Source of the DNA: a virus
Lineage: Duplodnaviria; Heunggongvirae; Uroviricota; Caudoviricetes
Strand: one strand, 5' to 3'
Length of the DNA stretch: 40,068 nt
IMG/VR virus record: IMGVR_UViG_2778261349_000008
Span: 1-40,068 of that record
In this document: piece after piece, positions 1,690 to 39,000 of the stretch
How positions within the stretch are numbered: the first letter of the stretch is position 1
Layout of the letters: every line of letters begins with the position of its first letter
The notes under the pieces: model-generated
What the model saw: only the letters and a program-made list of their open reading frames with translations
What the model was told of the DNA's origin: nothing
Database searches by the model: none
Made by a program: the position numbers and the translations under genes

Positions 1690-1704
1690 TGGTGTCCCCT
1701 GCAG
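1690..1704. repeat. attL core: 15-bp direct repeat identical to the 3' end of argW (tggtgtcccctgcag)
   Basis: Exact 15-bp match to 38986-39000 in the same orientation; sequence diverges immediately on both sides. Confidence 0.8.
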
Positions 1705-1777
1705 ACATCTACTTGAAGCGGCAGGGGATTGATTGGAATGGTGTTTTTTAGATGTGAGAAATATTTTACCCGCTATT

Positions 1778-1978
1778 TTACCCATTGGCGCGGCTTAAGA
1801 GCTTATTTTTGAATTCACAATGGTCACGATATAACCATCTTGCTCGCCCGTGGATAACTTTGGCTTTTGGCAGGTCGCCGGACTTAATCCGGTCATAGAT
1901 GAAGGTTTTACCGAAGCCAGTATCGGCCATGATGAATTTCAAATCAACCAGTGAATCAGGCTGTAGTTCGTGTTGCAT
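1778..1978 (-). CDS. torI: Excisionase / recombination directionality factor, AlpA-like winged-helix protein (TorI-like)
   Basis: 66-aa ORF MQHELQPDSLVDLKFIMADTGFGKTFIYDRIKSGDLP... matches my recollection of KplE1 TorI; ATG preceded by GGAG; sits beside attL and across the att junction from the integrase. Confidence 0.7.
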   Translation of the reverse strand: MQHELQPDSLVDLKFIMADTGFGKTFIYDRIKSGDLPKAKVIHGRARWLYRDHCEFKNKLLSRANG

Positions 1979-1997
1979 GAGTGCTATCTCCGAATAG

Positions 1998-2013
1998 GGA
2001 ATCGAACCTGCAA
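1998..2013. repeat. Second argW-derived 16-bp segment (ggaatcgaacctgcaa, T-arm region of the tRNA), about 20 bp upstream of the torI start
   Basis: Exact 16-bp match to 39000-39015 inside argW; in the intact tRNA this segment directly abuts the 15-bp core, here it is separated from the core by the torI gene. Confidence 0.7.
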
Positions 2014-2023
2014 ATCAGGCAAT

Positions 2024-2052
2024 AAAAAACCGCCATCAGGCGTTTTTGTGTT
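2024..2052 (-). terminator. Putative rho-independent terminator at the end of the early-left operon (short GC stem followed by a T-run on the minus strand)
   Basis: cgcc/ggcg stem with ttttttatt on the minus strand, downstream of the 2304-2951 gene; the stem is short, so weak. Confidence 0.3.
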
Positions 2053-2303
2053 CTTTCAGTTCTTCAATTCGAATATTGGTTACGTCTGCATGTGCTATCT
2101 GCGCCCACAGCATCCAGTGGTCATAGCAGTCGTTGATGTCCTCTGCTTCGATAACTCTGTTGAATGGTTCTCCATTCCATTCACCTGTGACTCGGAAGTG
2201 CATTTATCATCTCCATAAAACAAAACTCGCCGTAGCGAGTTCAGATAAAAGAAATCCCCGCGAGTGCGAGGATTGTTATTCACCTTTGACGGCAAGTTGC
2301 AGG

Positions 2304-2951
2304 TTAGCCACGGTTAACCTCCTGCGGCGGTTCTGGCAGCGGCATCCAGTGGGTTACTTTTGATGCAGGTTCTTCTCCAATGTCAGTTACTGCCCACCAT
2401 TTGTTTCTCGACCAATCGTAATACCCTTCGAAGGTATCGCGTCCAGCAAATCCGCGAGACTCCCCAAAAAACCAAACATACTGTTTATCGTCCGGCATTC
2501 GCTCACTACAGCTTATCCAACCATCCGGAGTTACCGGAGAGTTGCCGCGTTCTTTAATGTGCAAGCGAGGCTCACCATCTTTTGGTTCAGGCCACTGGCG
2601 TTCCATGTTGATCTTCAATTTATTTTCCATAGCAGCGGTAATTTCAGCATCACTGATACCAGCACGGCGCTGTGCATCCCACAACAGGAACTGCATATCA
2701 GCCCACTCGCTGAGATCGTCAGGTTCAGCTGCGGCTTCCAGAGCCTCTTTTGAGAGGTGTTTCAGTGGACCAATGGGGCCAACGCAGCCAAATGTGGAGT
2801 CAGACCATTTGGCATGCTCGTGGCGAATCTGTTCGCGTTCCAGTGATGCCAGTGCAATCCGTGCCACTTCCATTTGTTCGCCACGGGTAAGCCCGTTATC
2901 AAGCGGATTTTTAATGAATAATTCGATACGTTCTTTGGTTATAGCGCTCAT
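2304..2951 (-). CDS. Phage early protein with DUF550-like N-terminal and DUF551-like C-terminal regions
   Basis: Start taken at the internal ATG (MSAITKERIEL...) preceded by AAAGGAGAG and overlapping the upstream stop (ATGA); the C-terminal W-rich segment (WISCSERMPDDKQYVWFF...WMPLPEPP) resembles DUF551 as I recall it. Confidence 0.65.
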   Translation of the reverse strand: MSAITKERIELFIKNPLDNGLTRGEQMEVARIALASLEREQIRHEHAKWSDSTFGCVGPIGPLKHLSKEALEAAAEPDDLSEWADMQFLLWDAQRRAGISDAEITAAMENKLKINMERQWPEPKDGEPRLHIKERGNSPVTPDGWISCSERMPDDKQYVWFFGESRGFAGRDTFEGYYDWSRNKWWAVTDIGEEPASKVTHWMPLPEPPQEVNRG

Positions 2952-2952
2952 A

Positions 2953-3903
2953 TCACTCTCCTTTGATGCGAATGCCAGCAAGCCAGTTTCTTATGCCGAT
3001 ATATTCAGCGTTTCTGAAACCGCTTTTTACATATATAAAAGGCAAGCGAAGATTGTGACCATTGGCTGCCAAGTAGTCTTTACAACCCTGCTCGGTGAAA
3101 CAGCAGGTCACGAATTCATCAATATCTTTCACAGCAACGCGACGCCATTTTTCTGGTGGCTCCCGAAAGTTTTCATGAAGTAGTTCGAGACGACGACTTT
3201 GGCGTTTATTGGCTTCATTGCCATCTTCGTCAACCCAGACAATCCGGTCATGGTCATAATCAGCATCAACAACGATTTCGCGCTTTTGATACACACAAAA
3301 CATGGGATCTGACGTTATTCGATTGTCCTGTGTTCGAATATTTTCACCGATGATGCCAAACGAATCTGGTGCAGATTTTGTCTGCATCTCTTCGATACGT
3401 TCAGCCATCGCAGCACACTCTTCAAAGTTGCTTAATGCTTTTCGCTCCCATTCGGCGCATTGTTTTTCCAGTTCTGCTATGTGCTTACTTCCATCCGCGA
3501 TTACTCCCTCGTAATACTCGCGTTGCTCGTTGAGTTTTGATTTTGCTTCCTCAAGCTCAACACGCAGTTTCCCTACCGTTAGCGCAATATCCTCGTTCTC
3601 CTGGTCGCGGCGTTTGATGTATTGCTGGTTTCTTTCCCGTTCATCCAACAGTGCCAGCACGGTAGCTGGACTGGCTGCGGCGATGAATTCAGCATTGGCC
3701 TGCTGTTCCATTTGGAAATCTTCATCGAAACCGCTTTCTGGATGCGCTCCTTCAATTCTGAAAATAGGAATATATCCAGCAGCCTCGCGATGAATTAGTG
3801 CATCATCACCATCAAATCGGCCATCTCCATATTCGAGCGACCACTCGCCACACGTTGCTTTTTCTGCCTTAGCACGCAGTGCCTGATAGTCAATCTTGCT
3901 CAC
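2953..3903 (-). CDS. Ead/Ea22-like early protein
   Basis: 316-aa ORF with N-terminus (M)[21 protein letters not shown] typical of lambdoid Ea22-like proteins; GTG start preceded by AGGAGG; coiled-coil-like acidic middle region. Confidence 0.7.
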
Positions 3904-4067
3904 TGGTTGCCTCCTTTGCGCAACATCGCATTCAGATATTTGTTTTGATTCACTGATGGAAAAGAATTTCTCTTAAGCAATTCCTCTCTCGATGGCATTG
4001 GCTTTACGCGTTGGCGAATAATCATTTCTGCCGGAAGAATGCCGGGATTGTATGCAAGTCCTCTCAT
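3900..4067 (-). CDS. Hypothetical small protein (55 aa), translationally coupled on both sides
   Basis: ATG overlaps the stop of the upstream gene (ATGA) and its stop overlaps the GTG of the Ea22-like gene (GTGA); below the ORF-track size cut-off; translation [55 protein letters not shown]. Confidence 0.4.
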
Positions 4068-4345
4068 GATTTACTCTCAACGAACTGGTCAATAGCCATG
4101 CTAAGTGACATACCTAAAGTTTCGATATGCTGCTGAATATCCTGTAGCGTCTGCGCCTGAGATAACAGGATTTCACGGTTGCATAACTCTTTGACCAGAT
4201 GCTCAAACTTGCTGTAATAACCGATACGACTTAGTGTTTCTTTCCCTGCATTCTCGCCTTCTTTGATAATTCCTCTTTCGCTAAGAATCAGATCGTGTTT
4301 TGTTCCAGTAATAACGTATTTTCCTAGGTCGATGTTTAGCTTCAT
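4064..4345 (-). CDS. Hypothetical early-left protein (93 aa)
   Basis: ORF in the operon orientation, tightly packed with its neighbours; no recognisable family. Confidence 0.5.
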
Positions 4346-4361
4346 TGTTAATTACTCCATG

Positions 4362-4676
4362 TTAATTTATTCGTATGCCTGCTCTTTCTTCATCGAGTTT
4401 TTTTAGCTTGTATCGCATAGCTCTCACTGAATAAATTGAGCGGCAGGTTGCAATTGCTATTTCTTCTGCGGAGAACTTACCGAAAAGTGATACTTCGGCT
4501 CTTGTCCAGCGTCTTCCACGAAGTCGGCTAACAATGTCAGCGCCAATCCTTGTTGCTTTCGCCATTACTGCTTTTTCAGTCCTTTCCAGTTTTTCAGCGA
4601 TAACTTCAACTGGCATTGTCGACGCCACTTCGCGCAAGAAATCGACTTCCCATTTCTCCCATGGAGTCTTTTTCAT
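4362..4676 (-). CDS. Hypothetical early-left protein (104 aa), basic
   Basis: ORF in the operon orientation; no recognisable family. Confidence 0.5.
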   Translation of the reverse strand: MKKTPWEKWEVDFLREVASTMPVEVIAEKLERTEKAVMAKATRIGADIVSRLRGRRWTRAEVSLFGKFSAEEIAIATCRSIYSVRAMRYKLKKLDEERAGIRIN

Positions 4677-4687
4677 AGGCGATACCG

Positions 4688-5170
4688 TTATTTGATAAGA
4701 AGTGAAGGTTTCCCAACTTTGAGTTGAGCGCCGGGGATATTTATTCCTGCTTTTAGTTGGTGTTTGATTGCCAGTTTGTCGGCTTTAATTGTCGTTTCAA
4801 ACTCAACGTATTCAGGAGGAAGGGCGCTTGAGTCGATGATTTCTACAGTTTCTGACGGTTTGCGGATTGTTACCTGGTGAATACCTGCTCGAATCTTTTT
4901 CTTGCCAACCATTTCAAGCGATGACGCTATATACGCCATAATGCTGTCAATCTTATTTTGAATTACTGCTGCTCGTTCATTCAGTGACTTTGCCTCGTCC
5001 TTGAGGCGTTCAGCATAACCAGATTCATTTTTAATAATGGCAAGAAGTTGCTCTATTTTATCGGTAAATTCTCCTTCCATTCCTTCTATTGTGTCAGCAA
5101 TCATCTCTGGCTCTAAATCTGAATCCATCAGCTTTGCGTATTCATTGGCTATTTCATACAGTTTGCTCAC
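4688..5170 (-). CDS. Gp157-family protein (phage recombination-associated, often paired with RecT)
   Basis: Coiled-coil-rich ORF directly downstream of recT; probable GTG start (MSKLYEIANEY...) preceded by GGAGG; family assignment from memory. Confidence 0.6.
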   Translation of the reverse strand: MSKLYEIANEYAKLMDSDLEPEMIADTIEGMEGEFTDKIEQLLAIIKNESGYAERLKDEAKSLNERAAVIQNKIDSIMAYIASSLEMVGKKKIRAGIHQVTIRKPSETVEIIDSSALPPEYVEFETTIKADKLAIKHQLKAGINIPGAQLKVGKPSLLIK

Positions 5171-6065
5171 TGGCAACCTCCAGTTTCGCTTTGCATTCTA
5201 TGTAAATGGCTTGTACGTTCTGCTGCAATTTCATTCCAGATGTCAGGCGATATGCTTCTGCAAAATATCGCTTCAAATCATCCATGTTTTCAGCCTGAGC
5301 CATTTCATCACAAAGAAGTTGTGCTTTATCCGTTATTTCCTGCTGGCGTTTCCGTTCATCTTCGCGGATATCTTCCTCTGATTTGTGCGGCATAACTGGT
5401 TCAGTCCAAACACCTTCTTCTTCGTTTAGTACGTGAATAGCACTATCAAGACGTGATGCCTTAGGCCAATACTTGCTTGCACGCTTTACGACCGTCTTTC
5501 GCGCCATCTCATTCCAGTGATTTACCCATGGTCCTTTATCGCTGAATGCCGCCTTGCTTGTTTTCCTTACAGCCTCAATTTCAGCCAGACTCATCTCTTC
5601 CGTTAGATAATCACCTGCTGGCGTCTTAACTGTGCAGTAAACGCCAACGATATCACCACGATCACCGAAGGCGTTGTATTTATGGGTTGGTGCTTTATCA
5701 AGCCCGTTTGACTCATAGGTATCGTTAGCATGAACAAGTTTTGCCTGACCCCATGAGATAACACCAGACTCCATTGCAATATGGAGCAATCCCATATAAC
5801 TGATATCAAGGCACACCATGCCGTCGCGCGGAACCAGATAAGCCAGTTTGCTAGCCGGGTTTAAGGTGATGCCGATCGCCGCAACATTGATGATGGCGTT
5901 CTGTGCGCTGGTTGGATTTGCCAGTGCTGTTTTAGCCAGGTAATCATTTTTCTGGAAATACTGAATTGCAAACTGGCTTTCCTTAGCCCATGTCACCGTC
6001 TGTTCAGTCAATGCCCCGCAGAATAACTGCTCCTGCTGTTTAACGAATTCAACGATATTGCTCAT
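5154..6065 (-). CDS. recT: RecT-family single-strand annealing recombinase
   Basis: 303-aa ORF with the conserved GPWVNHWNEMARKTVVKRASKYWP block shared with Rac RecT. Confidence 0.85.
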   Translation of the reverse strand: MSNIVEFVKQQEQLFCGALTEQTVTWAKESQFAIQYFQKNDYLAKTALANPTSAQNAIINVAAIGITLNPASKLAYLVPRDGMVCLDISYMGLLHIAMESGVISWGQAKLVHANDTYESNGLDKAPTHKYNAFGDRGDIVGVYCTVKTPAGDYLTEEMSLAEIEAVRKTSKAAFSDKGPWVNHWNEMARKTVVKRASKYWPKASRLDSAIHVLNEEEGVWTEPVMPHKSEEDIREDERKRQQEITDKAQLLCDEMAQAENMDDLKRYFAEAYRLTSGMKLQQNVQAIYIECKAKLEVASEQTV

Positions 6066-6373
6066 GCTGCTTCTCCATAAATGTGTCTGCGTTTGAATAT
6101 TGCGAAGGCATATTCAGCCTTAACTCTTTCGGTTATTGCATCCCAGAACCATTCAGCGGCTTTTTCCTGATAGTTACAGTCATCATCTTCCAGCCAGTCG
6201 ATAGCGTCCTTAGTGTGTTCATCTGGTTTATATGAGCGAAGCATTTCGCTTATTGGGTCGCAACGTTTGCAGAGGCGATCAACTTCACTGTTGATTCGTT
6301 CGTAATCTTCATCAGTAAAACTTGCGATTATTTGCGATATTTCACGCTTATCATTCAGAGTCAGAATCATCAT
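6062..6373 (-). CDS. Hypothetical protein (103 aa) upstream of recT
   Basis: ORF overlapping the recT start; acidic; no recognisable family. Confidence 0.5.
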   Translation of the reverse strand: MMILTLNDKREISQIIASFTDEDYERINSEVDRLCKRCDPISEMLRSYKPDEHTKDAIDWLEDDDCNYQEKAAEWFWDAITERVKAEYAFAIFKRRHIYGEAA

Positions 6374-6458
6374 CTTTCTCCTGTTCTTTGTGCTGATTGA
6401 GCATTTTGTTCATCTGACGAATGAATTCTTCGTCTGACCAGTTATCCGTAAAACTCAT
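6351..6458 (-). CDS. Small acidic protein (35 aa) translationally coupled to cIII; possibly kil-like
   Basis: ATG overlaps the cIII stop (ATGA); translation MSFTDNWSDEEFIRQMNKMLNQHKEQEKDDDSDSE; the position matches kil in P22-like early-left operons, but there is no sequence evidence for that identity. Confidence 0.35.
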   Translation of the reverse strand: MSFTDNWSDEEFIRQMNKMLNQHKEQEKDDDSDSE

Positions 6459-6625
6459 GGACGGCCTTGTTGTTTCAAAATATCCCAAAGCTTTTCGAGC
6501 AAACTTTTCATTCTTGGTTGTTTAAAGTCTGCTCCGGTTAAAATATTTTTTCGTGAATGCTGTACCGATAAAATCGGGTTGAAAGGGCGAACCGATGCCG
6601 CCCCTGCAATAGCGAACTGTTGCAT
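6455..6625 (-). CDS. cIII: CIII-like FtsH-inhibitor protein
   Basis: Internal ATG with AGGAG RBS gives a 56-aa protein MQQFAIAGAASV...KSLLEKLWDILKQQGRP resembling lambda CIII (MQYAIAG...WKRLIDILNQPG); the longer ORF 6455-6730 is an N-terminal over-extension. Confidence 0.65.
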   Translation of the reverse strand: MQQFAIAGAASVRPFNPILSVQHSRKNILTGADFKQPRMKSLLEKLWDILKQQGRP

Positions 6626-6858
6626 AGGATGCTCCTTCTGTTTGATTGCATAACGAAAACGCCTCAAGTGAAGCGTTATTGGTATGCATATAAAAAGGCC
6701 CTCACACTGGAGGGCAAAGAAGATTTCCAATAATCAGAACAAGTCGGCTCCTGTTTAGTTACGAGCGACATTGCTCCGTGTATTCACTCGTTGGAATGAA
6801 TACACAGTGCTGTTTTTATTCTGTTGTTTATGCCAAAAATAAAGGTCGACTATGCGGC

Positions 6859-7329
6859 CTAGTAGAATACCCAATTTTCTGTTTCTTGGTTGTGTCCAAA
6901 GTTATATTCAATATCTGGTGTTGATGTATCAATATTCTTCATCCCATCAACAAGAGTTGATACAATAGCCAAATCTTGTTTGATTCTCATTAAATGGTAT
7001 TTCTTCCGGCGCAATAAACTTTCAATGGCAAGTTTCTTCGTTGGGAATGCAAAAGATCTTTCTGCATTTTTTGCTACTTTCTTAATTGCATATCTATTTC
7101 TCTTTTGTTTCCATTCCTGTAACCACTGATTTGGTGCTGGTTTAAAATTAACAATCCAATGCGCAGGAACCAACCATGCATAATGCTCTGTCTGATGAAA
7201 AGCTATATATTGAAGTGCGAATATTTTGATTCCATCTTCTTCAACTGTCGCCTGGAATCTCCAGAAAACAGGCATTCCATCATGTTCAGTTTCTGATTCA
7301 GGAAAAGGTACGCTCCATGATTTTGTCAT
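6859..7329 (-). CDS. Hypothetical protein (156 aa), AT-rich gene between N and cIII
   Basis: ATG with GAGGTGAG RBS 8 nt after the N stop; codon composition visibly more AT-rich than flanking phage genes; no recognisable family. Confidence 0.65.
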   Translation of the reverse strand: MTKSWSVPFPESETEHDGMPVFWRFQATVEEDGIKIFALQYIAFHQTEHYAWLVPAHWIVNFKPAPNQWLQEWKQKRNRYAIKKVAKNAERSFAFPTKKLAIESLLRRKKYHLMRIKQDLAIVSTLVDGMKNIDTSTPDIEYNFGHNQETENWVFY

Positions 7330-7337
7330 ATCTCACC

Positions 7338-7637
7338 TCAAATAAGTGGTTTGCTGCCTAATTTCATTTTCTGGCGACCAACACATGTCACACCCATTTC
7401 ACTGCGTGGCTTGCGGTAGTAAATACGGTTCTGTTTACGCTCGACTTCTTCTGCCTTCTTGCAGCGAAGGCTTCCGAGTGATGCTGCTTTATCTGCTCTG
7501 ACGCAACCAGAGAGCTTTAGCGCAATTTTTCGCGCCAGTCGCTGCTCTTGCATTGCCTGTTCACGTTGAGCCTGTCTGCGTGCTCTGCGGCGATTTCTGG
7601 CGTTATCGTCAGCCAGATATGTAATGACTACTGTCAT
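7338..7637 (-). CDS. N-like transcription antitermination protein (P22 gene 24 analogue)
   Basis: 99-aa ORF immediately downstream of nutL on the PL transcript; N-terminal arginine-rich motif NARNRRRARRQAQREQ; GGAGG RBS. Confidence 0.7.
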   Translation of the reverse strand: MTVVITYLADDNARNRRRARRQAQREQAMQEQRLARKIALKLSGCVRADKAASLGSLRCKKAEEVERKQNRIYYRKPRSEMGVTCVGRQKMKLGSKPLI

Positions 7638-8601: not shown

Positions 8602-8667
8602 AGTTAAGACATCTTAAATAAACTTGACTTAAGATTCCTTTAGTGGATAATTTAAGTGTTCTTTAAT
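8602..8667. promoter_or_regulatory. OR operator cluster (three 18-bp sites; the cro-proximal site atttaagtgttctttaat matches P22 OR1 from memory) with PR/PRM
   Basis: agttaagacatcttaaat, acttaagattcctttagt and atttaagtgttctttaat lie between the divergent c2 and cro starts. Confidence 0.7.
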
Positions 8668-8681
8668 TTCGGAGCGAGTCT

Positions 8682-8867
8682 ATGTACAAGAAAGATGTTA
8701 TCGACCACTTCGGAACCCAGCGTGCTGTAGCTAAAGCGTTAGGCATTAGCGACGCAGCAGTCTCTCAGTGGAAGGAAGTCATCCCAGAGAAAGACGCCTA
8801 TCGACTGGAAGTCGTTACAGCTGGCGCCCTGAAGTATCAAGAAAGCGCTTACCGCAAAGCGGCATAA
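8682..8867 (+). CDS. cro: Cro repressor
   Basis: 61-aa ORF MYKKDVIDHFGTQRAVAKALGISDAAVSQWKE... matching P22 Cro from memory; GGAG RBS. Confidence 0.9.
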   Translation: MYKKDVIDHFGTQRAVAKALGISDAAVSQWKEVIPEKDAYRLEVVTAGALKYQESAYRKAA

Positions 8868-8883
8868 GCAAATTGCTCTTTAA

Positions 8884-8925
8884 CAGTCATGGTCCTCATT
8901 CCCGCCGAAATGCGGGAATACAACG
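8884..8925 (+). promoter_or_regulatory. nutR: boxA (GCTCTTTAACA) plus boxB hairpin (CCCGCCGAAATGCGGG)
   Basis: Same boxA and boxB as nutL, located between cro and c1. Confidence 0.7.
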
Positions 8926-8975
8926 CGCATAAGTTGATGCGCATAACTTCTTATTTGTTAAGGAAATACTTACAT

Positions 8976-9254
8976 ATGGAACTTACAAGTACTCGCAAGA
9001 AAGCGAATGCAATTACAAGCAACATCCTGAATCGAATTGCTGTACGTGGTCAGCGAAAGGTTGCTGATGCATTAGGGATCAATGAATCGCAAATTTCGCG
9101 ATGGAAAGACAGCTTTATCCCAAAGATGGCCATGCTTCTGGCTGTACTGGAGTGGGGTGTTGAAGACGAGGAGTTGGCGGAACTGGCTAAGAAAGTAGCC
9201 AGAATGCTGACAAAAGAAAAAGCCCCGAAGAACGGCGAATTCTTCGAGGCCTGA
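8976..9254 (+). CDS. c1: CII-like transcriptional activator (P22 C1-like)
   Basis: Internal ATG with AAGGA RBS gives a 92-aa protein MELTSTRKKANAITSNILNRIAVRGQRKVADALGINESQISRWK... resembling P22 C1; the upstream part of ORF 8889-9254 contains nutR and is not coding. Confidence 0.85.
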   Translation: MELTSTRKKANAITSNILNRIAVRGQRKVADALGINESQISRWKDSFIPKMAMLLAVLEWGVEDEELAELAKKVARMLTKEKAPKNGEFFEA

Positions 9255-9288
9255 TGTAGAAAGACTGGATCAATCCACAGGAGTCATT

Positions 9289-9450
9289 ATGACAAAACGT
9301 CGTAAGAAATACCAGGAAAAAGAAGAGATTCGACACCCTGATTCACCTGAGGGATTAGTGGTAGCCGCAGCAAATAACAGGGCGTTCGCAGAGCGCCTTG
9401 TTGGTGTTTACAGACTAGCCAAAGCAGGAGTGAAACATGGGCGTCGTTAA
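9289..9450 (+). CDS. Hypothetical small basic protein (53 aa) between c1 and the replication gene
   Basis: ATG with AGGAG RBS; stop overlaps the start of the O-like gene; translation MTKRRKKYQEKEEIRHPDSPEGLVVAAANNRAFAERLVGVYRLAKAGVKHGRR. Confidence 0.4.
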   Translation: MTKRRKKYQEKEEIRHPDSPEGLVVAAANNRAFAERLVGVYRLAKAGVKHGRR

Positions 9451-11753: not shown

Positions 11754-11781
11754 TGACCATCTACATCACTGAGCTAATAAC

Positions 11782-11814
11782 AGGCCTGCTGGTAATCGCA
11801 GGCCTTTTTATTTG
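11782..11814 (+). terminator. Rho-independent terminator between the helicase gene and ninB (tR2-like)
   Basis: AGGCCTGC...GCAGGCCT 8-bp stem followed by TTTTTATTT. Confidence 0.65.
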
Positions 11815-11829
11815 GGGGAGAGGGAAGTC

Positions 11830-13105: not shown

Positions 13106-13172
13106 AAACCTTCAATTACACGGCTCACCTGTGGGATATCCGGTGGCTAAGACATCGTGCGAGGAAATGACA

Positions 13173-15811: not shown

Positions 15812-15816
15812 AATAT

Positions 15817-25838: not shown

Positions 25839-25846
25839 GTGAATAA

Positions 25847-28568: not shown

Positions 28569-28570
28569 CC

Positions 28571-29263: not shown

Positions 29264-29272
29264 GGGGTAATC

Positions 29273-30679: not shown

Positions 30680-32682
30680 TGAAAGTAACTGCAAACGGTA
30701 AGACATTTACCTTTCCTGATGGTACGAGCACCGAAGATATTGGCACCGCCATTGATGAGTATTTTGCTGGTCAGTCAGCACCAACACAACAAGGTGTTCA
30801 GCAATCTCCAGCAGACAACTCACTTGCATCAGGATATGCACAGCTTGCCACTCAGCAGAAGGAAGGACTAGATCGCTCTGCTGAGCAAGGGGCTGTTTTA
30901 GGTGCTGCAATGCGCGATGCCGTTACCGGTGAAAGCCGAATGACACCAGAAATGGAGAGACTGCAAAATGTTGGGTCTGCTCCAGAGCTTAATAGCTTAA
31001 GCACTGATGCGCTGCGTGCTGGACTGGGGCAGCTATTTGGTTCCGACGCTTCACAGGAGAAAATACTGCAAAGTATTGGCGGGAAAATCCGGAAGGATGA
31101 GAAGGGAAATTCCATAGTCACCCTTCCTTCAGGGGAATATGCACTTAACAAGCCTGGTTTGTCACCGCAGGATATAACGTCATTCTTGGCAAATGCTCTT
31201 GCATTCACTCCAGCAGGTAGAGCTGCGTCTGTTGTAGGTGCAACACTAAAATCAGGCGCTACTGATTTAGCTTTACAGGGTGCCACTAAGATCGCTGGCG
31301 GTGAGAATGTTAATCCAGTTCAAACTGCAATTTCTGCTGGTCTTGGTGGGGTACTGAAGGGTGTAGAAAACACCGCAAGCGCAGTGTCTCGTTCTGCTAT
31401 GGGTAAGATTGCTCCTGAAAAACAAGCTCAGATTGACTTTGCCAAGCAGAACAACTTGCCACTGATGACAACAGATCTTGTGGAACCGGGAACAAATATT
31501 GGTAAGCAAGCACGAGCTATGGCTGAGCGAATCCCAATAGCCGGAACAGGTGGGATAAGAAATGCACAGCAAAAGGCCAGGGAAGATTTAGTTAGAACAT
31601 TTAGCGATAATGTTGGTGGAATATCTGACGCACAACTTTACCAATCAGCTACTCGTGGTCAGCAGCAATTTATTCAGGCTGCTGGCAAGCGGTACGACAG
31701 GATCATCAGTTTGATGGGGGATACTCCTGTTGACATCACTGGAACAGTGAAAGCAATTGATGAGCAGATTTCCAAGTTAACTCGCCCAGGAGTATCGCAA
31801 GACCGCTCAGCTGTTTCTGTCCTTCAACAGTTTAGAAATGACATCACCAGCGGTCCAAATAACCTGCAATTAGCTAGAGAAAACCGTACAAACTTACGTA
31901 AGCGCTTTATGGCAGCACCTGACGAGGTCGATAGAGATACGTTGGAGAAAGCTGCGCAGTCTGTTTATAACGCATACACAACAGACATGAAAAAAGCGGT
32001 TGGCGCAAAACTAGGTGCGAAGGAAGCGCAAAACATGTCGCGTGTTGATCGTTCTTGGGCAAAGTTCAACGACATGATGAGCAATACACGTGTCCAAAAA
32101 GCTATTCAGAGTGGTAAAACAACGCCAGAAGATGTCACTAAACTAGTATTCAGCCAAAGCCCAGCGGAAAGGGCGCAACTTTATCGATTGCTTGATGATA
32201 GTGGGCGTCAAAATGCTAGAGCAGCACTTGTTCAGCGTGCAATGGATAAGGCGACAAGCGATTCAGGAAAGCTTAGCGTTGAGAAGTTTATTAATGAAAT
32301 GAAAAGGAATCGGAAGCAGGCTGAGACGTTCTTCAGAGGAGAGCATGGGAAACAGCTTGATGGGATAATGAAATATCTTGATTCCACTAGACAGGCAGCT
32401 ACTGCTGCCGCAAGCCCACTAACAGGGCAAATGGTAGCTGGTCCAGCAGCGCTGATAACAGCTCTTGCGTCTGTTACAAATCCAATGTTTGCAAAAGTTG
32501 CGGCAGTTGGAGCTGGTATCGGTATGGCTGGCAGGGGCTATGAGTCACGCGCGATGAGGAACGCATTACTAAAGTTAGCAAACACGCCAAAAGGAAGTAC
32601 TGCTTATGATAGAGCGATCAGACGGGTATCTGAAACTCTTACACCTCTAATTCAGGCTTCAAGTGAGAAAGCCCAGCAGTAA
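30676..32682 (+). CDS. Ejection protein (P22 gp16-like)
   Basis: 668-aa ORF, last of the three ejection-protein genes. Confidence 0.75.
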   Translation: MMKVTANGKTFTFPDGTSTEDIGTAIDEYFAGQSAPTQQGVQQSPADNSLASGYAQLATQQKEGLDRSAEQGAVLGAAMRDAVTGESRMTPEMERLQNVGSAPELNSLSTDALRAGLGQLFGSDASQEKILQSIGGKIRKDEKGNSIVTLPSGEYALNKPGLSPQDITSFLANALAFTPAGRAASVVGATLKSGATDLALQGATKIAGGENVNPVQTAISAGLGGVLKGVENTASAVSRSAMGKIAPEKQAQIDFAKQNNLPLMTTDLVEPGTNIGKQARAMAERIPIAGTGGIRNAQQKAREDLVRTFSDNVGGISDAQLYQSATRGQQQFIQAAGKRYDRIISLMGDTPVDITGTVKAIDEQISKLTRPGVSQDRSAVSVLQQFRNDITSGPNNLQLARENRTNLRKRFMAAPDEVDRDTLEKAAQSVYNAYTTDMKKAVGAKLGAKEAQNMSRVDRSWAKFNDMMSNTRVQKAIQSGKTTPEDVTKLVFSQSPAERAQLYRLLDDSGRQNARAALVQRAMDKATSDSGKLSVEKFINEMKRNRKQAETFFRGEHGKQLDGIMKYLDSTRQAATAAASPLTGQMVAGPAALITALASVTNPMFAKVAAVGAGIGMAGRGYESRAMRNALLKLANTPKGSTAYDRAIRRVSETLTPLIQASSEKAQQ

Positions 32683-32690: not shown

Positions 32691-33083
32691 TTAGCGGTTG
32701 ATGGTTGCTTTTTTCGGGTCATACCATCTCGGCCATTCTTTCAGGAATGGGAATGAGTCGGGTGCGTGGTTCTTTTTGTACGATTTAAGCAGCCTTAACC
32801 GCTCAATCGCACACTCATAAACCTCTTGTTGCCCTGTAGTCATCTCGGTCCATGAAAGGTGATCCATTGATAAGACAACGTTTTCAGCTTCTTTTATGAG
32901 GGCGTTTTTATTTCTCACCGCAGCAGCATGGCTGACAGAGCAATCCTGCCATATTCTTAAAAGCCAAATAGCTAAGCAGATGAAAAAAATGGTAGATAGC
33001 GATATATACACACCAACCTCTTTAGTTTTTCTAGTTACTTTGTCACGATAGGATATGCGAAATGATAAAACTAAATTGCGCAC
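32691..33083 (-). CDS. Hypothetical membrane-anchored protein (130 aa as listed; an alternative GTG start at about 33011 has an AAGAGG RBS)
   Basis: Single N-terminal hydrophobic segment YISLSTIFFICLAIWLLRIW; AT-rich; downstream of the mnt operon; no recognisable family. Confidence 0.5.
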   Translation of the reverse strand: MRNLVLSFRISYRDKVTRKTKEVGVYISLSTIFFICLAIWLLRIWQDCSVSHAAAVRNKNALIKEAENVVLSMDHLSWTEMTTGQQEVYECAIERLRLLKSYKKNHAPDSFPFLKEWPRWYDPKKATINR

Positions 33084-33271
33084 ATGATAACTCAGTAATA
33101 ATTGTTAATGAAAACATGATCACCTATATTGCACAAGGCGAAACAGGAAGCATAATCTGGTTTCATGAGAGTGATCACGCTTGGGTAAATCAAAGTCAAG
33201 AGGAAATACTTGAAATTATCAAAAATAACTATCTAAACGTTGCACACGACTCATCTATCCATTTTTCATAA
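33062..33271 (+). CDS. Hypothetical small acidic protein (69 aa) antisense to the mnt-operon cargo
   Basis: ATG with a possible AGGA RBS; overlaps the 3' end of the 33229-33810 gene and the listed start of the 32691-33083 gene. Confidence 0.3.
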   Translation: MIKLNCAHDNSVIIVNENMITYIAQGETGSIIWFHESDHAWVNQSQEEILEIIKNNYLNVAHDSSIHFS

Positions 33272-33810
33272 AATTGTATACCGAGATAGGCAAGAACAGA
33301 TGGATGTATATCAACAAGCTTTTCGCCAAGATGTTCTGTTGGAGGTGGATAATCTTTGCCTTGGTTTCTTACGGTTATAGGCATAGTTGTTGCTGGATGA
33401 AACTCAACTATCATAGGGTCGCCTTCGTATTTTGCTATTTTCCCTGTTGAATCAATGATTAACTCTTTAATATAATGGCTTCTTGCTCCCGGAAATGCCC
33501 CAAGAGTAGTATAAGGAGGTTCAAGTTTTGAGATTTCCATAGTGGAATGATGATCAGCATTTCTTGCTTGGTGAAGGTAAGCAAGTGTTTTGTCTGTTTT
33601 TCTAAGCATGAACTTTTGGTTGAAGTGGCTGCTAAATTTTCCACTAACCGGCTTTGTTGCACAGAGCAACTTACTGAAAGACTTTTCTATATGCCCAAGA
33701 CATTCTCGCCAGTGCATTTCAAAATCATCATGGTTTGTAGATGATTTCATCTGCTCTAGGCACTTTTTAGCTGCGATTATTTCTTTTTTTGCTGGGTTGT
33801 AATCGATCAT
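33229..33810 (-). CDS. Hypothetical protein (193 aa), AT-rich cargo gene translationally coupled to mnt
   Basis: ATG overlaps the mnt stop (ATGA); composition distinct from the flanking structural genes; no recognisable family. Confidence 0.65.
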   Translation of the reverse strand: MIDYNPAKKEIIAAKKCLEQMKSSTNHDDFEMHWRECLGHIEKSFSKLLCATKPVSGKFSSHFNQKFMLRKTDKTLAYLHQARNADHHSTMEISKLEPPYTTLGAFPGARSHYIKELIIDSTGKIAKYEGDPMIVEFHPATTMPITVRNQGKDYPPPTEHLGEKLVDIHPSVLAYLGIQFYEKWIDESCATFR

Positions 33811-34058
33811 TTTGCATTCTTGCCATACATGGTTTTCAGCGTCTCAACATCGTGTTCAAGATCTATCAATCGTGATGCTATAGTTGCAAGGTCTAGTGCT
33901 TGAATGTGTTTATTTTTTTCTGTCCACGCCTCAAGTGCCGCGACCATCTCAGCATTTAATGAACGAGAATTAGCCTCAGCCAGTTCAATAAGACGTTCCT
34001 TTATCTCTACAGGAAGCCTCAGATTCACTTGAGGGTTTTTGTACTTACGATCAGACAT
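33807..34058 (-). CDS. mnt: Mnt-like ribbon-helix-helix repressor
   Basis: 83-aa protein from the internal ATG (MSDRKYKNPQVNLRLPVEIKERLIELAEANSRSLNAEMVAAL) resembling the P22 Mnt N-terminal RHH domain; the listed ORF start is a GTG two codons upstream. Confidence 0.7.
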   Translation of the reverse strand: MSDRKYKNPQVNLRLPVEIKERLIELAEANSRSLNAEMVAALEAWTEKNKHIQALDLATIASRLIDLEHDVETLKTMYGKNAK

Positions 34059-34064
34059 CGGCAC

Positions 34065-34162
34065 ATCCTGAATAATTTTTTACCACAGGATATGTAGGTA
34101 TCTATTGACTATCAATGCGTACCTAAATACTATGTATGCGTACCACATACAAAGGAGCAAAA
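34065..34162. promoter_or_regulatory. Divergent mnt/arc promoter-operator region
   Basis: 98-bp AT-rich spacer between the divergent mnt and arc starts, with partially palindromic elements (ggtatctattgactatcaatgcgtacc). Confidence 0.4.
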
Positions 34163-34309
34163 ATGAAAGTTAAGACATTAAGGATGCCAGAATGGCTGGA
34201 AAAGGCTTTGGAGCAGTCCGCGAAAAAGGATGATCGGTCGTTCAGTAATGAGGTATTGAGGAGACTAAAGGAGTCAGTAGCTAAGGATGGAATTGTTTGT
34301 CCAGAATGA
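34163..34309 (+). CDS. arc: Arc-like ribbon-helix-helix repressor (48 aa)
   Basis: ATG with AAAGGAG RBS; translation MKVKTLRMPEWLEKALEQSAKKDDRSFSNEVLRRLKESVAKDGIVCPE has an RHH-like pattern; divergent from mnt and upstream of ant; below the ORF-track cut-off. Confidence 0.6.
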   Translation: MKVKTLRMPEWLEKALEQSAKKDDRSFSNEVLRRLKESVAKDGIVCPE

Positions 34310-34375
34310 GTAAAGCCCAAGCTATTGCGAGTAGCTCGGGCTTAAATCGCCAGTAAATTTTGAGGAAAAACTGAC

Positions 34376-35305
34376 ATGAAAAGTATAGCAACAGCAGTAT
34401 CTACTATCAACGTGCCATTCCACGGCGCAGAGCTTTATGTCGTCAATCACAACGGTGAGCCGTACACCCCAATGAAACCTATCGTTGAAGGTATGGGTAT
34501 GGATTGGGCTTCACAGTTTACGAAAATAAAGCAACGGTTTAAAACCTCCATTGTGAAAATCACAATGCAGCTTCCTGGTGATGAACAGTGCCGTGAGATT
34601 ATTTGTTTGGCACTTCGCAAACTTGCTGGCTGGCTGCAAACCATCAGCCCTAACAAAGTCCGCCCTGAAATCCGCGACAAGGTAATCCAGTATCAGGAAG
34701 AGTGTGACGATGTGCTCTATGAGTACTGGACTAAAGGCCATGTGGTTAATCCACGCAAAGCTAAAAAGGCGTTGCCGGGCAAAATCACCACTGAACAGCA
34801 GGAAGCCATTAAACAACTCGTCATGAGTCGCGGTCAGTCTCTGCCAAAAGAAAAACAGGCTAAGGCGATGATCACCATGTGGTCGTCACTAAAATCCCAT
34901 TTTGGATGTTCGTACAAAGAAATCAGTGAGGAGCAGTTTACCGAAGCACTATCACTTGCAGCTCGAGTTCCACTTGAAGGCGAGTTTATCGGCAAACAAG
35001 AGAAGAAAACCAACGAGCTTTCTGCAAAAGAAGCAAACAGCCTTGTATGGTTATGGGATTATGCCAACCGTTCACAGGCATTATTCCGCGAACTGTATCC
35101 GGCATTAAAACAAATTCAATCGAACTATTCCGGGAGATGCTACGACTACGGTCATGAGTTCTCGTATGTTATCGGAATGGCGAGAGACGTTTTAATCAAT
35201 CACACACGAGATGTTGATATCAATGAGCCAGACGGACCAACGAATCTTTCCGCATGGATGAGACTTAAGAATAAAGAATTACCTCCTTCAGTACATAACT
35301 ACTGA
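34376..35305 (+). CDS. ant: Antirepressor (Ant-like)
   Basis: 309-aa ORF downstream of arc, in the position of P22 ant. Confidence 0.7.
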
Positions 35306-35323
35306 CAGATAACCAACGCAACG

Positions 35324-35347
35324 ACCCAGCTTCGGCTGGGTTTTTTT
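35324..35347 (+). terminator. Rho-independent terminator after ant
   Basis: ACCCAGC-ttcg-GCTGGGT stem followed by a T7 run. Confidence 0.75.
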
Positions 35348-35405
35348 ATGCCCAAAATTCACCGTAGCCACGCTGCGGCGATTCCTTGCATCTGGAGCAA
35401 ATTAA

Positions 35406-37472
35406 ATGACAGACATTACAGCCAATGTGATCGTATCGATGCCTTCGCAACTCTTCACTATGGCGCGTTCTTTTAAAGCTGTAGCCAATGGAAAAATTTA
35501 TATCGGTAAAATTGACACTGACCCTGTAAATCCTGAAAACCAGATTCAGGTTTATGTGGAGAACGAAGACGGCTCTCACGTTCCCGTTTCGCAACCAATC
35601 ATCATTAACGCTGCTGGATATCCGGTATATAACGGACAGATTGCCAAATTTGTAACTGTGCAAGGCCATTCTATGGCTGTTTATGATGCATACGGTGCTC
35701 AGCAGTTTTATTTTCCTAATGTGCTGAAGTATGACCCTGATCAGCTAAGACAAGAATTAGAGAGTGGTATCGGAGCTTCAATAATAGGTTACGGATCATC
35801 GACAGTAAAAGATGCTCTTGATTCGGTTGTAAATAAACGTGTTTTGTACTTTTCCAGATTTGGCACACTGCAATCGCTGCAATCTTACATCACATCTAAC
35901 AACCTTAAAAACGTTGAAATTATTTTTGATCAGGTTGTGAATTTTGGCCCAGGAAGCGGAGGGTTGGGTACAATTGTTTCATTAAGCGACATGGACTATC
36001 TCGCCGTTAAGGGTTTGGTAATCAGAGACACTCTGCTTTATTCCGGCGCATTTGACCTGACGCGTGTGTTCGACCTGACGAATATCACCAATCTGGTGTT
36101 TGAAGTTGATGCCTCTTCCACACTTGAGTATGTCGGTGATGATAAGCGCGGACTGACCACACTGCGCCTGAATGGATGCGATAACTTCACATTTATCGGT
36201 AAGACTAGCAAGTGCTATCAGGGTTACGAATGCACTAATGTAAAAAATCTCTATGCTCGTAGTGTGAATAATGACACCCGCTACCCTCATCTTATGAGCA
36301 ATATAGGTTTGGTAGATATCAATACAAAAAACAATGGATGCCGCAGGGATTTCTTTCTTCAAAACAACTGCGCTGGCGGGCAAATCACAGTTGATGCCGT
36401 TGACACCCAGCAGGGTACGCCCATAAAGATGTATTTCTTTAACGGAAATATGGACAACCAGATATCTAATCTTGTTATAAAATATAAATATAGGAGCACA
36501 GGGAGATACACATTGCCATATCGTGTGGCTCCAATTTGGTTAGATTGGGGGTGGGATAGCTCGACAACAGAGACACTTATATCTGGTGTAATGCGTAATA
36601 TCACCATAGAGTATGATGTTGTAGGAGGCAATTGGGGTAGTGTCATTGGTACAACCAAACTAATAGATGAAACTATTGGGGATGGTGTAGCAAGAGGATA
36701 TGTTTATTCAAACATATTAATCAAAGGAAGAATTGAGTTAGGAGGAGGAGACTCCAATAATAAAGCGTGGGTATATAATTTTAACACTACCGATAACTGG
36801 AAAGATGGAGATGATATTAATGGATTTTACCTAAAAGACATTGTAATAAGAAAGTTAAATGGCGGTGAGGTGTATCTCAATACAAATCAATTAGCTGGGG
36901 CAGTGAAATCTAGTGGGCAAATAGTTTTGGATAATGTTTCTGCACCAGAGCTGATACTTTCAGCTCAAAGTTATGGCGATAAGGTCATGTTTAATAACTG
37001 CAATCTTTATGATTTCACAACTAAAAATGCTGTTAAAAATGCATATCAATCGCTTAAAACTACATGTACGATAAGAAAAGCATCAGGCGATGCCTCAAGC
37101 TTCCAAATTGGGTCAATGAGTGTATATAGAACAATCTGTTTCCTTTCGGTAGATATTAAAGCGACATCACCTTCATCAGGAAGTGTAAGTACATGGGGTG
37201 GTAATATAACTGGACAGTTGGTGCAAGGTACTACAGCAGGAAATGTAACATTAACTGGCAATACAAATACTTTGTACACAACAGGAACGGCATTAAATCC
37301 GTCTATTAGGTGCGAGACAGACGGCAGGATTATAATTACATTTGCAGGGTGGGAGTCGCTTGAAGCATTCATAACGTGCGATATTGCAATGGTTTACAAT
37401 GAATATTCAGGTGGATCTAATAACACAGTTCTCGGCCTGGTAAACAAGAAATTTGCTGTTGGAACTGTTTAA
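35406..37472 (+). CDS. Tailspike protein: P22/HK620-type N-terminal head-binding domain fused to a divergent beta-helix receptor-binding domain
   Basis: N-terminal ~110 aa ([46 protein letters not shown]...NVLKYDPDQ) match the conserved head-binding domain; the remaining ~575 aa do not resemble P22 or HK620 tailspikes as I recall them. Confidence 0.85.
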
Positions 37473-37666
37473 ATAGAAAGGTTTACTTATTGTAAATAAC
37501 AAATGTTTAACATTTCTTCTATCAGCTAATAATCAAAGGCATGAAGTCTATCATCCAAGTCTCAATCGATCGATGACTTGCTGTGGTTGATGAGACAAAA
37601 CTGATGCACACAAAGCTTTGCACTGGATTGCTAGACTTTGCGCTCTTCGATAATGGTTAAGGTGGA

Positions 37667-38824
37667 TCACTCCACCTTTTCATCAATCCAGTCCGCCCAC
37701 CACTGCATCATTTCTCTGCGCTTATCGAGATACTGAGCATGGTTGTAAATCCCGCGCACAGATCCGCCGTTGGCATGTGCCAGTTGCACTTCAATAGCGT
37801 CAGCAGGCCATTCGTGCTCGTTCATAATCGTGCTGAATTCATGCCTGAATCCGTGACCGCTTTCCAGACCCTCATAGCCGATTTGTTTGATCACAAGTAG
37901 CACCGCGTTCTCGCAGATTGGCTTCTTCTTATCGTTGCGTCCGGCAAAAACAAACTCTGATACTGGTTTAGTGATGGAGCTTAGCGTAGTGAGAAGTTCA
38001 ACCACCTGGTCCGACATCGGGACCACATGAATCTTGCGTCCCTTCATCACACTGGCGTCGATGGTGATAATCTTGTTTTCAAAATCGACGTTCTTCCATT
38101 GCATGGAACGAAGCTCTTTCGTTCTTAGGGCTGTGTAGCGTAAAACCTTGGTGGCAATGAGCGATACGATACTTCCTGAAAATGTTGCCAGTGCTTTGTT
38201 GAATTCCGGGATCTGGTCTGCAGGAAGAAACGGGAAGTTCTTCTTGCGGTATCCCTTCATGGCGTCAGCAAGGTCAGGTGCCGGGTTATATTTAGCCCTA
38301 CCAGTGACAATAGCGTAACGGAAAACCTCGCCGCATCTTCTGCGTGCTTTGTTGGCTCGCTCCATTGCGCCGCGATCTTCAAATCTGCGGATTACTTCCA
38401 GCAGTTGCATCGGCTCAATATCCTGAATTTCAAGGCCGCCGATGATAGGTAAAATGTCGTCATCAAACATTTTTGCAAGTTCATTCGCATACCCTACTGA
38501 CCAGACTTGCTTCTTGTGCTCGTACCATTCCTTGTAAATCGCACTAAAGGAATTGTTGTTAGACGAAGCCTTTTTCGCTTTTACCGGATCGATGCCAACC
38601 GAGATGTCTTTCCTCGCGGTCCATGCTTTATCTCTTGCCTCCTGCAAAGTCATTAGCGGATATTTTCCTACGGTCAGGATTTTCTCCTTACCGTCAATCT
38701 TGTAGCGAAGCTGCCATACCTTTTTACCTGACACAGGGACATAAAGGTACAGGCCATTACCATCGAGTAGGCGGTATGGTTTTTCTTTCGGCTTTGCTGC
38801 TTCAATCTGCTTAACGGTGAGCAT
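37667..38824 (-). CDS. intS: Tyrosine integrase, P4-type (KplE1/CPS-53 IntS-like)
   Basis: Matches my recollection of K-12 IntS from MLTVKQIEAAKPKEKPYRLLDGNGLYLYVPVSGKK...; C-terminal catalytic region with R...HxxR...Y; directly next to argW in the same orientation; the listed ORF start at 38860 is an upstream GTG. Confidence 0.85.
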   Translation of the reverse strand: MLTVKQIEAAKPKEKPYRLLDGNGLYLYVPVSGKKVWQLRYKIDGKEKILTVGKYPLMTLQEARDKAWTARKDISVGIDPVKAKKASSNNNSFSAIYKEWYEHKKQVWSVGYANELAKMFDDDILPIIGGLEIQDIEPMQLLEVIRRFEDRGAMERANKARRRCGEVFRYAIVTGRAKYNPAPDLADAMKGYRKKNFPFLPADQIPEFNKALATFSGSIVSLIATKVLRYTALRTKELRSMQWKNVDFENKIITIDASVMKGRKIHVVPMSDQVVELLTTLSSITKPVSEFVFAGRNDKKKPICENAVLLVIKQIGYEGLESGHGFRHEFSTIMNEHEWPADAIEVQLAHANGGSVRGIYNHAQYLDKRREMMQWWADWIDEKVE

Positions 38825-38985
38825 GGGTAAAAATCCGGTGGGTAAAATTATTTTATCCACTTTTTACCCGTCATGGAGTGCGGATGTCAACGATCTGACG
38901 CGAACCATTACGAACTGTGAATCTACGGAAGGCTTGATATTCAGGGGATTTTGCGGACTGGTACGGATGGGAGAGAACTGATAAA

Positions 38986-39000
38986 TGGTGTCCCCTGCAG
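38986..39000. repeat. attR core: 15-bp direct repeat (tggtgtcccctgcag), the 3' end of argW
   Basis: Identical to 1690-1704. Confidence 0.8.

Follow-up and report, generated by a model that had tools for sequence, protein, structure and literature searches.

The DNA analyzed here, hereafter called the window, is 40,068 bp long and covers positions 1-40,068 of the IMG/VR record IMGVR_UViG_2778261349_000008. Annotation of near-identical loci places host genes at both of its ends, with cscB (sucrose permease, 1-1248) on the left and yfdC (39136-40068, minus strand) on the right. A prophage lies between the csc sucrose locus and yfdC, inserted at the 3' end of argW, the gene for tRNA-Arg(CCT). The prophage is 37,311 bp long with both attachment (att) cores, corresponding to a unique genome of 37,296 bp, and its G+C content is 46.7%. 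Based on the boundaries, the recombination module and the gene content described below, we suggest, with a probability of about 0.8, that the interval 1690-39000 is a complete temperate podovirus of the P22-like group (genus Lederbergvirus, Sf6/HK620 subgroup) integrated in the argW 3' end.

Both ends of the prophage are marked by the 15-mer TGGTGTCCCCTGCAG, of which the window contains exactly two copies (1690-1704 and 38986-39000), both on the plus strand, and no third copy was found in the window when up to one mismatch was allowed. Not a single further base is shared at either side of the repeat, and its 40-bp flanks are unrelated (approximately 30% identical). Since ARAGORN and Rfam place argW at 38986-39060 on the minus strand, the right copy corresponds to the last 15 nucleotides (nt) of argW, including CCA. 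A preliminary description of this DNA had taken the repeat both for the argW 3' end and for the boundary of the element, and the comparisons with natural sequences agree with both proposals. At the left core (attR), homology to the KplE1 (CPS-53) prophage of E. coli K-12 and to the phages Sf6 (AF547987) and HK620 (AF335538) breaks exactly at the outer edge, while on the attL side it extends across argW and reaches into yfdC. In the K-12 annotation, the corresponding 15 bp are the pseudogene pawZ, the end of CPS-53. When we joined the outer flanks (1290-1704 and 39001-39400), all 815 bp were found contiguously and with 100% identity in many E. coli chromosomes, and this empty argW site was present at a coverage of at least 80% in 1414 genomes. 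When the inner flanks (38500-39000 and 1705-2210) were joined, the product was found contiguously, at 97-98% identity, in the isolated phages HF4s, N7 (MH717096), Sf6, HK620, HK633 and others, and these matches span the integrase, the att site and the excisionase. The predicted attP junction reads ...GATAAATGGTGTCCCCTGCAGACATCT... and the predicted attB junction reads ...GGTATCTGGTGTCCCCTGCAGGAATCG..., and both reconstructions put the att junctions at the 15-bp boundaries, not elsewhere. The published core of KplE1 has 16 nt, CTGCAGGGGACACCAT (PMC2951348). The duplicated core at the argW 3' end of the present prophage, CTGCAGGGGACACCA(T), is that of a KplE1-type module and agrees with the core in the Sf6 record; it comprises 15 and not 16 nt here because the base after CCA in the csc-side flank is G, not T, and the downstream flank in K-12 (dsdC side) happens to match one more base. 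The interval 1690-39000 almost certainly represents a single complete phage genome.

The recombination module next to the two cores is highly similar to that of KplE1. IntS is identical to K-12 IntS at 380 of 385 residues, and TorI is identical at all 66 residues to K-12 TorI, the Sf6 gene 18 protein and HkaC of HK620. The P arm differs by one base from those of K-12 KplE1, Sf6 and HK620, and the P' arm with the last ~60 bp before the intS ATG is identical in the window, K-12, Sf6, HK620 and N7. The octamer GGGTAAAA occurs six times in the window, and five of these copies are inside the att arms (two in attR and three in attL). A predicted sigma-70-like promoter site (38874-38847) overlaps the GGGTAAAA repeats of attL; in KplE1, the intS promoter (PintS) was mapped in the P' arm region, where it overlaps the IntS arm sites (PMC2951348). 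Both arms, in attL and in attR, differ very little from those of KplE1, in which the IntS and TorI sites were mapped. The att cores, arms, intS and torI are essentially the experimentally characterized KplE1/HK620 recombination module, and the module carries every sequence-level hallmark of the KplE1 type, as the preliminary description had proposed.

In the prophage, torI adjoins attR and intS adjoins attL, both on the minus strand, and the two genes therefore stand at opposite prophage ends with attP between the integrase gene and the directionality-factor gene. This order had been described at first as different from those of P22 and Sf6. The difference from P22 (NC_002371), in which the order is tailspike, gtrCBA, attP, int and xis, was confirmed, but the GenBank records show that Sf6 has the same order as the prophage, with the tailspike (13719-15590), oac, int (16781-17938), the attP core (18099-18114) and gene 18, the torI homologue (18188-18388). 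The HK620 record likewise shows the tailspike, an O-antigen modification gene, int, the attP core (1368-1383) and hkaC. The module has been described as 'highly conserved' in CUS-3, HK620 and Sf6, with int and the directionality-factor gene transcriptionally uncoupled (PMC2951348), and in Kapi1 attP is located between int and xis, 'like these phages', so that the genes end up at opposite ends of the prophage (PMC8787464). The split int/attP/xis arrangement is thus common to KplE1, HK620, Sf6, CUS-3 and Kapi1 (PMC2951348, PMC8787464). Two terminator-like hairpins are predicted upstream of torI on the minus strand (2274-2253 and 2242-2223). In the free phages, a small open reading frame (ORF) extends across attP (HK620 hkaB and Sf6 gene 17, 46 amino acids (aa)). 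This ORF is split by integration here; its remnant at 1654-1785 on the minus strand keeps the first 32 codons at attR, and the frame then enters host DNA. Around torI and attR, Rfam gave only sub-threshold matches to RNA genes, STnc130 (30 bits, cut-off 55) and STnc420 (25 bits, cut-off 70), and both were rejected; at the Rfam gathering thresholds, the whole window contains three tRNAs only.

To assess the completeness of the prophage, approximately 59 curated ORFs were compared with all ORFs of the isolated phages Sf6, HK620 and N7, of the record 'Escherichia phage vB_EcoP-683R2' (ON470594.1, hereafter 683R2) and of a prophage of E. coli WCHEC115106. In this comparison set, every gene of known essential role aligns from the first to the last residue, mostly at 97-100% aa identity. 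The aligned proteins are the integrase, TorI, N, the repressor, Cro, CII, O, P, NinB-NinI, Q, holin, endolysin, Rz/Rz1 and the small (TerS) and large (TerL) terminase subunits and, among the virion proteins, the portal, scaffold, coat, gp4, gp10, needle, gp14, gp7, gp20 and gp16. Pfam profiles are covered end to end by the portal, coat, gp4, gp10, needle knob, gp7, TerS domain and integrase, and by the helix-turn-helix and S24 domains of the repressor. No insertion sequence or transposase was found within the prophage, and no frameshift or truncation was found in its recognizable genes. The preliminary description had listed a full gene set from integration to tailspike, without frameshifts in recognizable genes. 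All of the listed modules were located; the sole length difference is a stop-loss in ninD, and the alignment to KplE1, HK620 and Sf6 that it had proposed as a check gave full-length essential genes and a conserved att module. The features are summarized in Table 1.

Table 1. Features of the argW prophage and its att sites, in positions of the window.
Feature	Position	Strand	Basis or remark
attR core	1690-1704		15-bp copy of argW 3' end; left prophage boundary
P arm of att site	1705-1777	minus	direct GGGTAAAA arm-type repeats at 1764-1771 and 1776-1783
torI, recombination directionality factor (excisionase), 66 aa	1778-1978	minus	identical protein named TorI by PGAP
Second argW-derived 16-mer, GGAATCGAACCTGCAA	1998-2013		just upstream of torI
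Early-left operon	2036-7637	minus	ORFs align full length with 683R2, Sf6, N7 and WCHEC115106 prophage; Pfam and PHROGs families
cIII-like	6455-6628 (about)	minus	early-left operon
N	7338-7637	minus	early-left operon
Prophage repressor, P22 C2 type, 216 aa	7951-8601	minus	Pfam HTH_3 and Peptidase_S24, both over full profile
OR/PR/PRM control region	8602-8681		between repressor gene and cro
Early-right operon	8682-15673	plus	full-length matches in Sf6, HK620, N7 or WCHEC115106 prophage, 97-100% aa identity; Pfam
cII/C1	8976-9254	plus	early-right operon
O	9437-10327	plus	early-right operon
P, DnaB-type helicase	10317-11753	plus	early-right operon
MT-A70-family DNA methyltransferase	12267-12857		nin region; PADLOC type II methyltransferase model
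Q	15155-15673	plus	early-right operon
tRNA-Asn(GTT) and tRNA-Thr(TGT)	15737-15892	plus	downstream of Q; ARAGORN, Rfam; phage-borne
Lysis cassette: holin S, endolysin R, Rz with embedded Rz1	16135-17352	plus	Pfam Phage_holin_3_1, Phage_lysis
Rha-like regulator (Phage_pRha and ORF11CD3)	17658-18212	plus	Pfam, PHROGs; position of P22 rha
Sf6-type small and large terminase, P22-type portal, scaffold, coat	19012-25153	plus	Pfam covers full profiles
Small-terminase gene	19012-19434	plus	Pfam Sf6_terminase (TerS family)
gp4, gp10, needle with Sf6-type knob (gp26), gp14, ejection proteins gp7/gp20/gp16	25196-32682	plus	all align full length
immI-type region	32691-35305		Pfam Arc twice, P22_AR_N/C
Two ORFs of unknown function	32691-33083, 33229-33810	minus	upstream of Mnt-like gene
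Mnt-like Arc-family repressor	33807-34064	minus	immI
Arc	34136-34309	plus	immI
Antirepressor Ant	34376-35305	plus	immI
Tailspike, 688 aa	35406-37472	plus	Pfam Head_binding over aa 1-113, E = 1.6e-66
Tailspike-intS spacer, 194 bp	37473-37666	minus	vestigial int-gtrA leader
intS, tyrosine integrase, 385 aa	37667-38824	minus	Pfam Arm-DNA-bind_3, Phage_int_M, Phage_integrase
P' arm of att site and intS promoter region	38825-38985	minus	GGGTAAAA-type repeats at 38825-38832, 38840-38847 and 38862-38869
argW, tRNA-Arg(CCT)	38986-39060	minus	ARAGORN, Rfam; 38986-39000 is attL core, right boundary

The early-left operon contains small ea genes, a dATP/dGTP pyrophosphohydrolase-DUF551 protein, an Ea22-like protein, a Gp157/Gam-like protein, RecT, cIII and N. 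In the stretch 6373-6859, no kil gene was found between the RecT-region genes and the 156-aa ORF, and the early-left arm is also without the 969-bp homologue of Sf6 gene 33 that is found in several relatives. The repressor is identical to that of phage N7 (216/216) and 92% identical to P22 C2 (198/216), and its HTH_3 and Peptidase_S24 domains predict the RecA-cleavable LexA/S24 class. Of the following 80 nt (8602-8681), 77 are the same as in P22, where OR1-3, PRM and PR are annotated, and 58 of the 61 Cro residues are identical to those of P22 Cro. The early-right operon comprises cro, cII/C1, O, P, ninB, an MT-A70 methylase, ninD/E/X/F/G/H, the NinI phosphatase and Q. In ninD (12854-13105), the stop codon TAA is changed to TCA at about 13025-13027, so that NinD has 83 instead of 57 aa. 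The substitution does not alter the protein encoded by the overlapping ninE, and it is the only anomaly of ORF length seen in the prophage. The nin genes are dispensable in lambdoid phages, as illustrated by the lambda nin5 deletion. When the unassigned ORFs were searched for defence genes with PADLOC, the MT-A70 methylase gave the only match, and this enzyme is probably an orphan anti-restriction methylase, because there is no cognate nuclease nearby. The tRNA-Asn/tRNA-Thr pair downstream of Q occupies the equal position in Sf6.

The lysis proteins align over their full length with their Sf6, HK620 and N7 counterparts at 97-100% identity, and the Rha-like gene follows them, as P22 rha sits between the lysis and terminase genes. 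From terminase to coat, the proteins have full-length matches of 99-100% identity in Sf6, HK620, N7 or 683R2, and gp16 is 100% identical to N7 gp16, while gp20 is mosaic. The order of the virion genes is canonical, and they match the Pfam families P22_portal, P22_CoatProtein, P22_Tail-4, Phage_stabilise, Phage_tail_NK, P22_gp7 and Inj_translocase. They are of the Sf6 type and not of the P22 type, and the coat shares only 68 of 423 residues with the P22 coat. Prophages of E. coli PSJ-36 and LR-25 contain the immI segment at 99.8% identity. The two ORFs of unknown function in this segment occupy the place of P22 sieA and orf59a; the 193-aa product of the second (33229-33810) matches phrog_23516, also of unknown function, only, without a Pfam or PADLOC match, and by position only it is a candidate superinfection-exclusion or defence protein.

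The tailspike is a chimera of a P22-type head-binding domain and a foreign receptor-binding domain. Residues 133-681 match the tailspike of Ag3, a 158-kb phage of Shigella boydii, at ~70% identity. This domain is rare, and the best match among 5426 complete E. coli genomes was 92% identity in strain LR-50, covering 89% of a 2-kb query that spans most of the tailspike gene and the spacer. Tailspike and intS are separated by a 194-bp spacer that shares 89% identity with the intS-yfdG(gtrA) spacer of K-12 and is also homologous to the int-gtrA spacer of HF4s. This homology includes the start codon of gtrA, followed by a few degenerate codons, and breaks off at the stop codon of the tailspike gene. 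No O-antigen-modification gene is present between tailspike and int, and the two genes are adjacent because the O-antigen-conversion cassette is missing. The adjacency and the absence of a conversion gene, which the preliminary description had contrasted with P22 and Sf6, hold; its further statement that attP separates the tailspike from int in those phages does not apply to Sf6. Direct adjacency of tailspike and int is not new, because the isolated phage Louie has it. The simplest reading of the spacer is that a gtrABC cassette was lost or replaced when the present tailspike end was acquired, and it is possible that the tailspike domain was swapped with a large Ag3-like phage and that the serotype-conversion cassette was lost at the same time. 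An exact twin of the junction between the tailspike stop and the gtrA remnant (a 56-mer) had no matches in genome contigs and none in viral contigs.

The prophage as a whole is a mosaic. No single record covers more than ~65% of it, and Sf6, HK620 and N7 together cover 79% at 97.5% identity. Among the complete E. coli genomes, none covers at least 80% of the left 25 kb, and two only do so for the right 20 kb. The exact combination of P22-type immunity, Sf6-type virion genes, immI and an Ag3-like tailspike domain without a conversion cassette is absent from the collections searched.

Then, we need to consider whether the interval could be explained otherwise. The 15-bp repeat is short and might in principle be a chance match without biological meaning. 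The same two-match outcome was obtained in 0 of 100 dinucleotide-preserving shuffles, and the repeat lies at the 3' end of a tRNA gene, exactly where homology to K-12, Sf6 and HK620 breaks off, and is the same as the published core of KplE1, Sf6, HK620 and Kapi1. A chance repeat, which has practically no probability left, was rejected when the reconstructed empty site and the attP were both found in nature. It is also very improbable that the interval consists of tandem or nested elements or that the true prophage ends are elsewhere, even though the argW-dsdCXA/csc region is a known variable hotspot, as far as the reference list of PMC8787464 indicates, and a second 16-mer derived from argW is present inside the prophage (1998-2013). 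There are only two copies of the core, and one integrase, one repressor and one set of virion genes; the outer flanks join to a natural empty site at 100% identity and the inner flanks to a natural attP. The 16-mer is also found in the single free phage genomes of Sf6 and HK620, and it is therefore no junction of the present insertion. Tandem elements and alternative boundaries were thus rejected, given that only two cores exist and that both junction reconstructions are natural.

A recently inactivated cryptic prophage deserves more weight, although we consider it unlikely. Its ORFs would look intact, but a missense, regulatory or tailspike-fit defect would block induction or infectivity, and the element would persist like KplE1, at most able to excise. 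The sequence by itself is silent on function, and several points weigh against an intact phage: the genome is slightly smaller than that of any relative compared, kil and the O-antigen-conversion cassette are lost and ninD carries a stop-loss, which would be signs of some ongoing decay or remodelling, missense or cis-regulatory defects may be present in genes that look intact, and the rare chimeric tailspike has a receptor-binding domain whose nearest phage relative is an unrelated large phage and which may fit poorly to the head-binding domain or to the host O-antigen. However, none of the essential genes is shortened, and all have 97-100% identity to their counterparts in plaque-forming phages. 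Conservation extends to the att arms, the PintS region and the OR operators, and the prophage is free of insertion sequences, while viable Sf6 tolerates IS911 in ninG. The functions of kil, the conversion cassette and ninD are dispensable in related phages, and Louie is without a conversion gene. The size of 37.3 kb is near those of the isolated relatives Louie (38,040 bp) and HK620 (38,297 bp). Based on these observations, we suggest that a complete phage genome is present and that the element is probably inducible to infectious particles.

Drawing on the biology of P22, lambda and KplE1, we propose the following course of events for such a phage. The P22 C2-type repressor would keep PL and PR off by binding at OL and OR and thereby maintain lysogeny, and SOS-activated RecA would stimulate self-cleavage through the S24 domain of the repressor, so that PL and PR are derepressed. 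N would antiterminate the leftward transcript, which would then reach torI at the far left end of the early-left operon, while IntS would be supplied from its own autoregulated promoter inside attL. TorI, IntS and host bending proteins would recombine the two 15-bp cores, and excision would yield a 37.3-kb circle with attP between intS and torI and leave argW intact. The circle would be replicated by O and the DnaB-type P protein, and Q would switch on the late operon, comprising the two tRNAs, lysis, terminase, capsid, tail hub, needle, ejection proteins and tailspike. The Sf6-type terminase would package the DNA by headfuls, and the tailspike would recognize, and presumably cleave, the O-antigen. 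The Mnt/Arc/Ant genes of immI would provide a second layer of immunity control.

A further feature of the module is the 16-mer GGAATCGAACCTGCAA, which occurs in the window only at 1998-2013 and 39000-39015. Inside argW it directly abuts the 15-bp core with a one-base overlap, and the core and GGAATCGAACCTGCAA together make up the last 30 nt of argW, which the phage holds as two pieces. The phage copies (1690-1704 and 1998-2013) are exactly 293 bp apart, and this interval consists exactly of the P arm, torI and the torI ribosome-binding site. GGAATCGAACCTGCAA is conserved in KplE1, Sf6 and HK620, and in the HK620 record it falls within a predicted CII-dependent 'integration' promoter. One reading, which we hold doubtful, is that the 16-mer is a fossil: the directionality-factor gene and the P arm would have been inserted into a longer ancestral block of tRNA identity, splitting the core from GGAATCGAACCTGCAA. 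If true, this would explain the origin of the split int/xis architecture in the KplE1/Sf6/HK620 lineage. Alternatively, GGAATCGAACCTGCAA could have been retained as part of the CII-dependent promoter. When we searched viral contigs for an unsplit arrangement, in which the early-left end, the 16-mer and the core are contiguous, there were 0 exact matches, and in the more distant Klebsiella phage Chronis (78% identity over int-attP-xis) the 16-mer was not found upstream of xis. The idea of a split tRNA block is therefore a lead only, unsupported beyond the E. coli/Shigella lineage.

The argW-attL-intS junction is frequent, and at least 80% of a 661-bp probe for it was found in 1880 of 5426 complete E. 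coli genomes. P22-like argW prophages with an IntS/TorI module are common and well studied (Sf6, HK620, CUS-3, Kapi1 and KplE1), and the prophage described here is an ordinary member of the well-known P22/Sf6/HK620 group with an already characterized IntS/TorI system; its significance goes little beyond annotation. It could be of use as a probably viable, generalized-transducing and O-antigen-specific phage for the host serotype, and it illustrates an exchange of tailspike modules in nature, with a small podovirus and a 158-kb phage as the partners. In addition, the lysogen carries a TorI identical to that of K-12, which inhibits the TorR response regulator (PMC3509656).

When the prophage is compared with its known relatives, Sf6 matches ~60% of it at 97% nt identity. 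The terminase, portal, scaffold, coat, gp4/gp10, knobbed needle, gp14 and gp7 proteins are 97-100% identical, and Q, the tRNA-Asn/Thr pair, the lysis genes, the int-attP-xis order and the core are shared. Sf6 differs, however, in having the oac O-acetylase gene between tailspike and int, a 434-like immunity region, Erf/SSB recombination genes and IS911 in ninG, in having no immI region, and in carrying another gp16 and another receptor-binding domain of the tailspike. HK620 shares the module of int, attP core, hkaB and hkaC (TorI), with 98% identity over the reconstructed attP, and its P helicase, TerS and gp10 are each 100% identical. In contrast, it has a wzy-like O-antigen modification gene next to int, another cI/cro pair, a lambda-type Q, only remnants of immI and another tailspike domain. 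For the right half, N7 is the best phage match (79% covered at 96.6%); the repressor, Cro and gp16 are identical, and the layout is shared including immI with Ant. It differs in its replication genes (O and an ATPase), a lambda-type Q, an HNH gene and the tailspike domain, and one more ORF separates its tailspike from int.

P22 shares the overall gene order, immC (C2 92%, Cro 95% and OR 77/80 nt), the mnt-arc-ant layout of immI, the position of rha, the nin region and the head-binding domain of the tailspike. On the contrary, its integrase is unrelated (51/385 residues identical), int and xis are adjacent on one side of attP, gtrABC is located between tailspike and attP, and the coat and terminase are of another sequence type. 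KplE1 (CPS-53) of K-12 shares the argW site, nearly identical attL, intS, torI and attR, and the int-gtrA leader, but it is a 10.2-kb remnant without repressor, replication and virion genes that keeps the gtrABS-like yfdGHI (PMC2951348). The 683R2 record contains the host genes cscR, cscA, cscK and cscB at its left end (389-5493), and because these host csc genes are included, it is an excerpt of a prophage and its host flank and not the genome of a virion; its csc-attR-torI junction is the same as in the window.

Kapi1, HF4s and Louie are isolated P22-like coliphages of the argW type, and their tailspike domains and accessory genes differ from those of the prophage. Kapi1 has been shown to integrate in argW, with an identical core (PMC8787464). 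HF4s has an ancestral-looking order of tailspike, gtrC, gtrB, gtrA and int, while in Louie the tailspike directly adjoins int as in the prophage, with a spacer that is not homologous to the 194-bp spacer described here.

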